A stretch of 64,000 nucleotides of DNA, taken from NCBI RefSeq assembly GCF_053078305.1, contig NZ_CP166879.1; one strand, 5' to 3'. Below are positions 15,001 through 18,000 of this stretch, in pieces. Each line of letters begins with the position of its first letter. Position 1 is the stretch's first letter. A program made the position numbers.

Positions 15001-18000
15001 CTGTTTAATCGCTTTCAGCGTTCCACCTTTAATATAACTTTCTGGATGTGGGCGATGCATTAATATGGTGTGGTTGATTTCAGCATTGAAAAACCGCACT
15101 CTTGAGCCCTGCATTTCCTTTTTGACATATCCCAGAGAGGAAAACAAAACGACCAGCTCATCCCATTCAAACGTTTTTTTACTGTTTAAAAACTTTTCCA
15201 GTAGCTTATCTGCTTTCCCCATACCCACATAATCTCATCTTCGCTACATTGCAACTAATTATAGTTACAGGCAGTGTTTTTGTCAAAAGCCACCAAGCCC
15301 GCTGGGTTCTCTTTGACTGTTCGCTGCTTTTCCTGGTGTTATCCGGGGGCTTTTCCCTCACGCCAAATCTCACACAGAGTAACCGGCCTCAGCGTCGGTT
15401 TTTCTTTGCGCATCCTCCATAACTCACCACCTGCATTATCCTCGCTTATATTTTTTACATAAATAAATTAATCTAAAAATCAATCACATAGATTAAAATT
15501 AAATCAAATTATTAGCCTTACTATTGACTATGATAAGTTGAGCTTATTATATTTTACCCAAGCCAGAAACATCGCGCCCTTACACAGGGCTACATAAATC
15601 AGTCGTACGGCGCGACTTAACCCGCCGCAAAATGCTCTTTAACAATCTGGAGCTTTACAGCGTCAATGACCTGTTTAGACCCCTACACGTAAACGTGCTG
15701 TATCATCGGGTGCGATCCGGTCGATGAGAGAGTATCCCCGCGCGAGAGCGAGAACGGCGTGAGAACGGGCAACACTGGCAGGAAGTTGGCGCTGACCAAT
15801 ACAGGGAATGTTTTGGGGTGCTGAGAGTGCCACCAAAGCGTTGCGTGAAATAGCGATGCCGTCCCAACCCTGTAGCAAAAGTAATGATTGGATACCATAA
15901 GACCAATCACAATCATTCTACGATTACCTATGCCGCACAAAGTTATTTTTTCAACACAATGTTCAAGTTTTCAACTGACTTCTTTATACTACCGCGTAGG
16001 TAGTGCTATCAAATAGACTATGTAAGCACTTCATGAAGGATGTCGGTCGAACTGAACGGGAAACTTAATGATGCGAAAAATACTCAGGACAACTCTTATC
16101 GCTACAATTTTGTTTTCACCAATAGTACAGGCGGAGTGGTATACAGTAACAGACGACGATTTGTTCTCTGATGGTCACACGGCGCTGATGGTAGGAAAAA
16201 AAACATCAAATCCTGAAGAGATTGATAATAACATGATTGCTCTTAATTGTACGCCAAGATCCCTAACATTCTCATTAGTCGAAAAGGACATAGAAGAAGA
16301 AACATCGGCCCCAATTTATTCATTCCCAATAGATATGGCAATAAAAATTGACAAAAATAGTATAATAAGGCTCAACGCAACACTTTCAAGAAGAAACTCA
16401 ATGCTAACACAAGCTATCACTGAACGTACTGATACTGAAATGAAGAAAATTAAAATTATACTCAGGCAACTCAGAGATGCTAAACATAGAGTGAGGGTCG
16501 GGATTCGACGCCAAGACATCACACGAGAAGATGCCATGACATATTCTTTCAGCTTTAATGTATTAGGCTCCACTGGTGCTGTTAATAAATTTATCACTGC
16601 ATGCGGAATAAAGCTGTAAACATGTTTCTGCCAAAGCAACCTTGACAAATCCACATCGACGGGGATATATTCCACCTCATGGTGCTGAACACACCTTGCA
16701 AAGCGGAGACCGCACCCGTCAGTCATGCGGCTTTTTTATGTCCATTTTTCAGATATGGTCGGGTAGCGCGTATACCGAAAAACAGCCGAAAGGTTAAGGA
16801 TACGGGCCGACTTTGCACGGTGTTCAAGTACCTGGCCGCCCTGCTGAACACAGGGCTATCTGAACAAATGCAAAGGACATAAAATATGAACTCTCAACTC
16901 ATCCCCGTATTCAACGGCACTATCGACAACGAAACTACCCTGTTCTGTAATGCCCGTGATTTACACGCGTTTCTCGAAGTCGGAAAAGACTTTTCCACGT
17001 GGATACGAATCCGCATCTCCGAGTATGAATTTACAGAAAACCAAGATTTTATTTTGCTCCCCAAAACGGGGGAGCAAAGAAAAGGTAGAGGCGGTCACAA
17101 CCGCAAGGACTACCACCTCACTCTCGATACAGCCAAAGAGCTTGCGATGGTTGAACGTAACGAAAAAGGCCGCCAGATACGCCGATACTTCATCGAGTGC
17201 GAAAAGAAACTTCGCCAGAGCCTTTTACCTGCACCAATGAACATCAACTACCCTCTCTCGTGGTTCTCAGATAACCATCCCTACGCCACGATGAACTATG
17301 TTGATCGCAAAGTTATCAGCCTTGATGCTTCCGTGCTCTTCGATATGCCAAGCCCAACTATGCGCATCCTCAATGAGCTACACAGCAAGGGCTATAACGT
17401 TGACGCCGCTGTCGCCGAATTTAACGCCTTCAAACATCTGACGGAAGAAATGCGCCGTAAATTGCTGGATATTTCCCGCACATCGGAAAAGTCTTCCCGC
17501 TTTGGTTTCAACGTTAATCTTTAATTAACCCCATCCCCGATCACATATCGGGGATTAAATTAAATATCTGGATTAATTAACCGGAGGATTTGTCATGCTC
17601 AAACCTCACTACGGAACCGCATTAGTTTCTCGCGAGGAAGTTAAACCCGGCACTGCAATTCTTTACAACGGGCGTTATTACATGGCGTCAGCTAACGTTA
17701 ATAATGCACTTTACGCACATTCACTGATTGAAAAAATTCGCATTATCTCAGATGCAATAGAAGTTTACCTGAACAATAAAGGCCAACCGTTAATCTCACC
17801 AGCCTGAAAGGAAATATCATGCTCAATCAAGAAATTAATATCAATGTAAAAAGCGTCATAACGCCAGCGAAAACGATAATGGGAGAAGTTTTTATGGATG
17901 ATAAAATCATCGCCTATTTTGTCGTCCTGCCTGATGAGGCTATTTCTGTTATTGATACGGAAGGCAATGTTATGTTTATCGCGGAACATCCAGAAGACAT

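Follow-up and report, generated by a model that had tools for sequence, protein, structure and literature searches.

A conserved boxA-linked structured RNA in the pL leader of an N-less Stx prophage, a candidate antitermination element

How does an Stx-converting prophage that lacks an N gene transcribe an early-left operon punctuated by intrinsic terminators? This question is raised by a 64-kb stretch of DNA (64,000 nucleotides of contig NZ_CP166879.1, assembly GCF_053078305.1; hereafter the window), which consists of such a prophage together with DNA beyond its int end. On the plus strand, the early-left operon extends over about 15 kb, from about 15560, behind a pL-type promoter, to xis and int. 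An earlier note on this DNA had stressed two boxB-like hairpins beside a boxA in the pL leader, and had left three possibilities: antitermination by RNA or by host factors only, an unrecognised small protein, or expression as separate modules. Our analysis showed that boxA is part of the same module as a conserved RNA of 137 nucleotides (nt) that starts 13 nt further downstream. We tentatively propose, with slightly less than even confidence, that boxA and this RNA would together form a cis-acting, N-independent, Nus-assisted antitermination leader of the pL operon in this Eru1-type Stx prophage. The first of the three possibilities gave the best fit, by way of boxA and the downstream RNA and not by way of the stressed hairpins. 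The elements of the module are as follows.

15633-15645, plus strand: boxA TGCTCTTTAACAA, 13/13 identity with the Escherichia coli rrn boxA
15658-15794, plus strand: conserved structured leader RNA, 137 nt (RNAalifold; covariance model R1, 198.8 bits with the full model)
15658-65/15787-94: helix P1 of the RNA
15670-75/15777-82: helix P2
15681-83/15767-69: helix P3
15686-89/15694-97: helix P4
15703-09 and 15711-12 with 15718-19 and 15721-27: helix P5
about 15739-15761: helix P6, variable
15797-15822, plus strand: tail of the conserved module, hairpin CCAAUACA-GGGAA-UGUUUUGG with GGA in the loop

The boxA, previously described as near-consensus, proved to be an exact TGCTCTTTAACAA that occurs only once within the window, where an exact 13-mer would be expected about 0.002 times by chance on both strands. 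It matched the boxA of the K-12 rrnH leader at 13/13 positions (...CAACTGCTCTTTAACAATTTATCAG... in rrnH). The order of hairpin before boxA, reversed relative to the lambda nut sites, was also confirmed, and comparison with the K-12 rrnH leader showed the same order there; it is therefore the ribosomal-RNA order and not a scrambled lambda nut site. Among the homologous leaders, a boxA variant was found at a constant distance 5' of P1 in 65/65 distinct sequences, most commonly as TGCTTTTTAACAA, otherwise as C/TGCTCTTTAACAA, TGCTCATTAACAA or one of a few others.

To define the structure of the downstream RNA, 18 representatives were aligned (alignment A2), and RNAalifold predicted six helices, in which a long-range P1-P2-P3 stack closes the hairpins P4 and P5 and the sequence-variable P6. 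Covariance model R1 then gave one full-length match in each of 100 further sources, and alignment of these matches yielded 65 distinct sequences. In these sequences, standard pairs filled 98.8% of the cells, compared with 29-44% when the 3' partners were slid by 1-3 columns. Compensatory changes on both sides were observed in 12 of the 31 modelled pairs, and the observed values were reached by none of 500 shuffles. P4 occurred as CACG/CGUG, CGCA/UGCG and CACA/UGUG, the 5' strand of P1 read GCGUCA or GCACAU with matching changes in the partner strand, and one pair of P5 showed a double change from C-G to U-A in the lineage of the window. The P6 sequences were unrelated between phages, and most of them still form a hairpin. 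The RNA is under strong purifying selection, with compensatory changes, across phages of Escherichia, Enterobacter, Klebsiella, Kluyvera and Edwardsiella.

A coding explanation of the conserved stretch was excluded by 1-nt insertions and deletions, by the covariation and by the sequence-variable hairpin. Neither the mini open reading frames (ORFs) of the leader nor the minus-strand ORFs of 67-85 amino acids (aa) had a PHROG match. The covariance models of Rfam 15, applied to 15400-16900, gave no match in the leader even at E<=5, the sole match being a member of the sRNA-Xcc1 family at 16757-16845, and the leader was likewise without a match when the whole window was searched at the Rfam gathering thresholds. 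The GC content reached 0.59-0.63 in 80-nt windows across 15680-15819, which contains no long ORF. The segment at about 15700-15880, rightly recorded before as GC-rich and ORF-free, is the 137-nt multi-helix RNA, the conserved partner of boxA.

Homology with the relatives ends at about 15822-15842, shortly after the tail hairpin. This hairpin (15797-15817) resembles the CsrA consensus RUACARGGAUGU obtained by systematic evolution of ligands by exponential enrichment (SELEX). It also overlaps the AUG of a 30-aa ORF. Another common variant of the leader (e.g. L134, L016 and L041) carries, about 20 nt after the RNA, a strong Shine-Dalgarno sequence, GAGGAG, and a 3-codon mini-ORF AUG-AAG-CAC-stop (MKH); this arrangement was present in at least 16 loci.

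The distribution of the module was examined in several searches. By megablast, 15559-15842 had matches of 96-98% identity in about 105 phage records, most of them from Oslovirus Stx2a phages, including P13374 (O104:H4), TL-2011c and Lyz12581Vzw. In some relatives, homology starts a few bases past the -10 hexamer, while the promoter/operator and the morons upstream differ, and this is the pattern expected for a transcribed cis element. With a sensitive search, the stretch from boxA onward (15633 to about 15820) was 93-94% identical with the pL leaders of phi80, HK225 and Klebsiella phage KO-TP1, and the core of the module was 78% identical with Edwardsiella phage Edno5. A 21-nt core pattern occurred in at least 120 IMG/VR contigs, and the 180-nt module in 223 of 5,426 complete E. 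coli genomes, among them those of DH5alpha-type strains, which carry a phi80 remnant. Among the GTDB species genomes, 11 matches in Enterobacter, Kluyvera and Escherichia added little diversity. The module was found once per phage, always 3' of the cI-side promoter and 5' of the kil/gam/rec genes, and it was annotated in none of the records examined.

Upstream of boxA, the leader starts from a promoter and contains the hairpins on which the earlier note had laid its emphasis.

15524-15553, plus strand: pL-type sigma-70 promoter TTGACT-18-TATATT, score 10/12, transcript start at about 15560
15576-15590, plus strand: hairpin 1, GCCCU-UACAC-AGGGC, in the minimum-free-energy (MFE) and centroid folds
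15599-15617, plus strand: hairpin 2, AGUCG-UACGGCG-CGACU, 17/18 nt match to the start of HK639 putL
15608-15627, plus strand: alternative hairpin CGGCG...CGCCG of the MFE fold, which abuts boxA and excludes hairpin 2

The promoter aligns hexamer by hexamer with the annotated O-L/pL regions of phi80, HK639 and HK225, with which the window also has in common a start region ending GAAACATCG. No operator repeats common to the OR and pL regions could be established; the pL assignment, which agrees with that made before, rests on this homology. Hairpin 1 was present as reported, with a different loop on the stem of lambda boxB; its loop, UACAC, is not GNRA-like. It was confined to the leaders of Oslovirus-type Stx phages, which are 96-98% identical. 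Hairpin 2, reported at 15601-15617, can form, but the MFE fold favours the competing hairpin at 15608-15627, which occupies the position of the rrn 'boxB' hairpin. Other leader types also have a hairpin abutting boxA, of a different sequence. The hairpins 5' of boxA are a variable, lineage-specific 5' module; the widely conserved element is boxA with the GC-rich, ORF-free segment, and the emphasis on the two hairpins was misplaced.

The position of the module relative to the put sites of N-less lambdoid phages provides a further argument. In HK639, a 'putL-like antiterminator RNA' is annotated directly after pL, with no annotated putR, and the HK639 and phi80 leaders open alike (CCATCGAAACGAAACATCG...AGCTGAG.GAAGTTAGCCAGCGGCG). 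The 17/18-nt match of hairpin 2 to the start of HK639 putL had a blastn-short E value of 0.027 against the whole window, and hairpin 2 corresponds to the A3-G7/C15-U19 duplex described as the first hairpin of HK022 putL in a cryo-electron microscopy (cryo-EM) paper. The remainder of put (AUGCGUCGG... and stem II) was absent from the leader of the window, and model R1 gave no match in HK022 or HK639. Comparison with HK022, which the earlier note had suggested, and with HK639 led us to reject the leader as a put RNA, with which it has only the first hairpin in common. In a metagenomic leader (L128), the sequence is HK639-like to GTCAGTCGAACGGCGC and continues with boxA and the structured RNA, the 3' arm of hairpin 2 being lost. 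Put and the boxA-linked RNA are thus alternative cassettes within a single family of pL leaders, which is the main argument, one of position, for an analogous purpose of the two.

We then looked for a protein that could act in place of the RNA. No N homologue was found by PHROG among the early-left ORFs and the leader mini-ORFs, tblastn of the lambda, P22, 21 and phi80 'N' proteins against the window gave only E>1, and the RefSeq annotation of the 99% identical prophage of FHI_NMBU_10 contains no N gene, all of which upholds the absence of N noted before. The plus-strand ORFs between 15554 and 16067 comprise 31, 30, 39, 42 and 43 aa; as claimed, none reaches 60 aa up to 16067, and none matches a PHROG family. 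The early-left ORFs were assigned by PHROG to Ant-type antirepressors, Kil, GamL, an SSB-like protein, a methyltransferase and families of unknown function, and RecT and an exonuclease are annotated in the relative FHI_NMBU_10. A conserved small or N-like ORF was also sought in the homologous regions. None was found: the first ORF 3' of the leader differed widely between the 90 loci compared, and ORF clustering over 4 kb downstream showed Kil and GamL as the only frequent neighbours (62/90 each).

The module had no second copy either. Neither boxA nor R1 recurred on the pR side, in the window (minus strand past cro) or in the phi80 early region, and none of the 100 loci contained a second full-length R1 match. 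On the minus strand, the pR operon from cro to Q (8600-13400) contains no strong intrinsic terminator, the first being tR' at 8103-8084, after a pR'-like promoter at 8161-8134. Expression of Q would thus be independent of N-type antitermination, and the absence of a right-hand site fits this terminator map. An 'M3 RNA' is annotated between cII and the replication genes in phi80 and HK639 (L132 4164-4223; L130 37910-37969).

From these results we infer the following course of events, of which Nus binding, persistence on the polymerase and terminator read-through are the inferred parts. During transcription of the leader, NusB and NusE (S10) would load onto boxA and, as in rrn leaders, seed the assembly of a Nus-factor complex on RNA polymerase. 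The folded RNA would stay with the elongation complex and either stabilise or extend it or make contact with the polymerase, as put RNA does. Polymerase from pL could then resist Rho across the roughly 500-nt untranslated leader, including a C-rich stretch at 15860-16000, and pass the intrinsic terminators that punctuate the 15-kb operon (moron, ant, kil, gam, recT, exo ... xis, int). A right-hand site would not be needed, the pR operon being without a strong terminator before Q. The parts of the operon on which this proposal bears are listed below.

15860-16000, plus strand: C-rich, G-poor untranslated stretch, GC skew -0.3 to -0.43, no ORF
16068-16619, plus strand: first operon gene, 183 aa, beginning MMRKILRTTLIATILFSPIVQA with a signal-peptide-like N-terminus; moron
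16642-16845, plus strand: antirepressor control cassette 1, upstream of antA/B at 16886-17524
16710-16737, plus strand: weak terminator with a 5-bp stem and an 11-nt loop, z +0.7, ending the short RNA of cassette 1
24198-24226, plus strand: strong intrinsic terminator inside the operon, z -3.8
25692-25910, plus strand: antirepressor control cassette 2, upstream of ant at 25963-26640
25780-25801, plus strand: intrinsic terminator ending isrK, z -3.4
26654-26672, plus strand: intrinsic terminator after the second ant gene
28973-28995, plus strand: intrinsic terminator directly upstream of xis, z -2.9

The C-rich stretch is a candidate rut-like Rho-loading region upstream of the moron. PHROG places the first gene in a family without an assigned function, and its N-terminus MMRKILRTTLIATILFSPIVQA reads as a signal peptide, in agreement with its description as a secreted-protein moron. 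The moron (15843 to about 16630) is inserted relative to the Oslovirus phages, in which the isrK/C4 unit directly follows the leader. In cassette 1, a promoter (16642-16671) is followed by a short RNA that ends at 16710-16737 and by the sRNA-Xcc1-family RNA at 16757-16845 (66 bits), and in cassette 2, a promoter (25692-25721) is followed by isrK (25728-25801, 53 bits) and C4 RNA (25827-25910, 70 bits). The two cassettes are paralogous, each with an identical promoter type (TTGACA-18-TATATT), a short terminated RNA, a C4-type RNA and then an Ant-family gene. No such cassette accompanies a third ant-like gene, at 24265-25002.

Of the four terminators that had been described as good, those at 24198-24226, 25780-25801 and 28973-28995 folded well, 16710-16737 was weak, and a fifth was found at 26654-26672. 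Expression as separate modules, one of the three possibilities, explains a part of this map. Each of the terminators at 16710-16737 and 25780-25801 closes a short RNA with its own promoter, so that both mark the 3' ends of small regulatory RNAs in cassettes of the P1-immI/Gifsy-isrK type; those at 24198, 26654 and 28973, all before xis-int, are left unexplained by it. The promoter-like sites found before kil-gam-recT-exo or xis-int were limited to pL and the cassette promoters.

Several observations weigh against our proposal. The folding energy of the 271-nt leader was unremarkable (z -0.5), and it is covariation, not folding energy, that supports the structure. The commonest boxA variant of the family reads GCUUUUUA and not GCUCUUUA. 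Two of the terminators belong to cassettes with promoters of their own, and xis-int could have an unseen promoter. Sense-strand terminator-like hairpins 3' of the element were present in 57 of 75 loci, without enrichment over the antisense strand. In phi80, a 98-aa ORF named N by its depositors lies directly after the leader. Complexes of the rrn boxA type act mainly on Rho-dependent terminators and poorly on intrinsic ones, so that read-through of intrinsic terminators would rest entirely on the 137-nt RNA.

The strongest of the rival readings, which we still consider unlikely, is the following. BoxA alone, of the rrn or CRISPR-leader type and dependent on Nus factors and SuhB, may protect the untranslated leader from Rho, while the terminators are leaky or mark module boundaries and the 137-nt RNA has a separate role, e.g. 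as a stable processed trans RNA, as a 5' domain that stabilises the mRNA or as a site to which a host protein binds. The exact rrn boxA, the rut-like stretch in the leader, the internal promoters at 16642 and 25692 and the GGA-loop hairpin directly after the RNA are all consistent with it, as is the precedent of CRISPR arrays, whose long untranslated transcripts are shielded from Rho by boxA alone. Against it, boxA and the RNA were never found apart, all 101 of the 101 model matches spanning both at constant spacing; the RNA has no terminator of its own to release a small RNA, and its slot is that of putL.

A negative, suhB-like device would use the same parts to the opposite effect: a Nus complex on boxA would, with the aid of the folded RNA, block translation initiation or promote Rho termination in the leader, and thereby silence kil and other toxic early-left genes against leakage from pL in lysogens. 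A passage of PMC5725501 describes a Nus complex that can promote or prevent Rho action depending on context, and both the presence of Kil downstream in 62/90 loci and the rut-like stretch after the RNA would suit such a device. We regard it as improbable, for the element takes the place of put, which is a positive antiterminator, in leaders that are otherwise related, and expression of the 15-kb terminator-bearing operon on induction would be left unexplained.

It is similarly hard to credit that the module is a nut-type site for an unrecognised protein (of the phi80 'N' ORF family, encoded elsewhere, or supplied by a co-resident prophage) whose gene was lost or never carried. This idea draws on the phi80 ORF just mentioned, which directly follows the leader in seven loci, and on the many lambdoid prophages that enterohaemorrhagic E. 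coli strains carry. The phi80 ORF, however, has no N-terminal arginine-rich motif, is assigned by PHROG to a family whose function is not known, lacks a homologue in the window and accompanies only a small minority of the leaders; no protein except Kil and GamL consistently co-occurs with the module, and a second site in the pR operon is lacking in both the window and phi80. The unrecognised small protein suggested earlier as the antiterminator is disfavoured by the variable genes after the leader, the 1-nt insertions and deletions and the compensatory pairs.

That the leader elements are relics without a present role in termination, the early-left modules being expressed from internal promoters and the terminators insulating morons, would agree with the two cassettes with their own consensus promoters and with hairpin 2 as what seems to be a remnant of put left by recombination (its 3' arm lost in L128), but is a poor prospect given the strong purifying selection with compensatory changes across phages of five genera and the lack of promoter-like sites before kil-gam-recT-exo or xis-int beyond pL and the cassette promoters.

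Other features of the window place the leader in its prophage.

6416-6685, minus strand: stxB
6696-7652, minus strand: stxA
8149-8682, minus strand: Q
10748-12268, minus strand: DEAD-box helicase, 506 aa
13162-13401, minus strand: cro, immunity region
13468-14226, plus strand: LexA/CI-type repressor, immunity region
14633-15228, minus strand: HicB/HicA, between cI and pL
29002-29301, plus strand: xis
29330-30664, plus strand: int

The 506-aa helicase agrees with the description of Eru1A for non-lambdoid Eru1 Stx phages, and the replication genes of the prophage are of the Eru1 type. The nearest RefSeq relative, FHI_NMBU_10, showed 99% identity in the 88% of 13000-20000 that was aligned. Past the cI operon, a perfect inverted repeat of 13 nt (14517-14548) between runs of A and T can be read as a bidirectional terminator, and two plus-strand terminator-like hairpins (15330-15349 and 15381-15400) lie just 5' of pL; together these would insulate pL against upstream transcription. 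The prophage has two type II toxin-antitoxin pairs on the strand opposite the early-left operon, HicA/HicB (14633-15228) and HigB with a helix-turn-helix (HTH) antitoxin (25045-25658), the latter between two ant genes. Two tandem small-RNA genes of the STnc100 family were found by Rfam immediately 3' of stxB (5847-6333, minus strand, 199 and 139 bits), and a 2026 preprint relates STnc100 to the prophage small RNA PasD. Beyond int lie a flavodoxin-like flavin mononucleotide (FMN)-reductase ORF and then a histidine-phosphatase ORF, apparently host genes. Rfam also matched a cspA thermoregulator (46618-47040, minus strand, 158 bits) and naRNA4 (35857-35935, plus strand, 82 bits) in the DNA past the int end (about 30.7 kb), which is probably host chromosome.

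A leader-encoded signal for processive antitermination is already known as a kind. What appears to be new is an rrn-type boxA joined to a conserved multi-helix RNA in the put slot of N-less lambdoid phages. This combination was not in Rfam, was unannotated in the records examined and was undiscussed in the Eru-phage literature, although an earlier account of the phi80 leader may exist; the statement that these cis elements had not been dissected before is borne out, as the Eru-phage papers are silent on early antitermination. The papers that defined N-less Stx phages such as TL-2011c and P13374 leave aside how these run their early programme; such phages have been associated with unstable lysogeny and severe outbreaks. 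A compact conserved RNA element would make this question testable with simple reporters, and the element is already present in DH5alpha through the phi80 remnant.

It is possible, though we consider it doubtful, that boxA and the RNA constitute a third, hitherto unrecognised class of phage-encoded processive antiterminator, an 'RNA N' tethered next to a site that loads Nus factors, by which polymerase from pL would withstand Rho and intrinsic terminators alike without a phage protein. The phages whose early-left genes, those for excision among them, would be controlled in this way are the Eru1/Oslovirus Stx2a phages of the O104:H4 and O103:H25 outbreaks and phi80, together with a large number of Enterobacterales prophages. 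A Nus-linked RNA antiterminator would then join the short list of N, Q, put, RfaH/LoaP and rrn, and a new structured RNA family, absent from Rfam, would be added. If the element turned out to be negative or unrelated, its conserved fold would still call for explanation.

Comparison with known systems shows what the module has in common with each of them. The cassettes of P1 immI c4 and Gifsy-1 isrK have the same layout as the units at 25728-25910 and 16642-16845, each before an ant gene; these units of the window lie downstream, outside the pL leader. Like lambda nutL with N, the leader has a boxA behind pL with stem-loops close by and precedes a terminator-bearing operon whose last genes are xis-int, but it has no N gene, its hairpin lies 5' of boxA with a loop that is not GNRA-like, and both a nutR twin and a tR1-like pR terminator are missing. 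The boxA leaders of CRISPR arrays and suhB likewise place boxA outside rrn and lambda, where it governs Rho on poorly translated or untranslated RNA; their targets are host loci, and no structured RNA has been described there. With the rrn leader, the module has in common an identical 13-nt boxA, a hairpin directly 5' of it, a long untranslated transcript and the absence of a dedicated phage protein. The rrn antiterminator consists of a boxB hairpin, boxA and boxC and works through a complex of NusA/B/E/G, SuhB and S4. The rrn leader has no counterpart to the 137-nt RNA, rrnH having a GU-rich, boxC-like UGUGUGGG 17 nt after boxA where the window has that RNA, and the operon here is a phage pL operon with intrinsic terminators. 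Put, which requires no Nus factors and is blocked by mutations in the zinc-binding domain of the RNA polymerase beta' subunit, is shorter (about 70 nt and two stems, compared with 137 nt and six modelled helices) and stands without the boxA that is always attached here. Put of HK022 and HK639 and the module nevertheless agree in their slot directly 3' of pL in N-less lambdoid phages and in a conserved folded nascent RNA, and for put the cryo-EM paper describes that RNA alone can defeat both classes of terminator.

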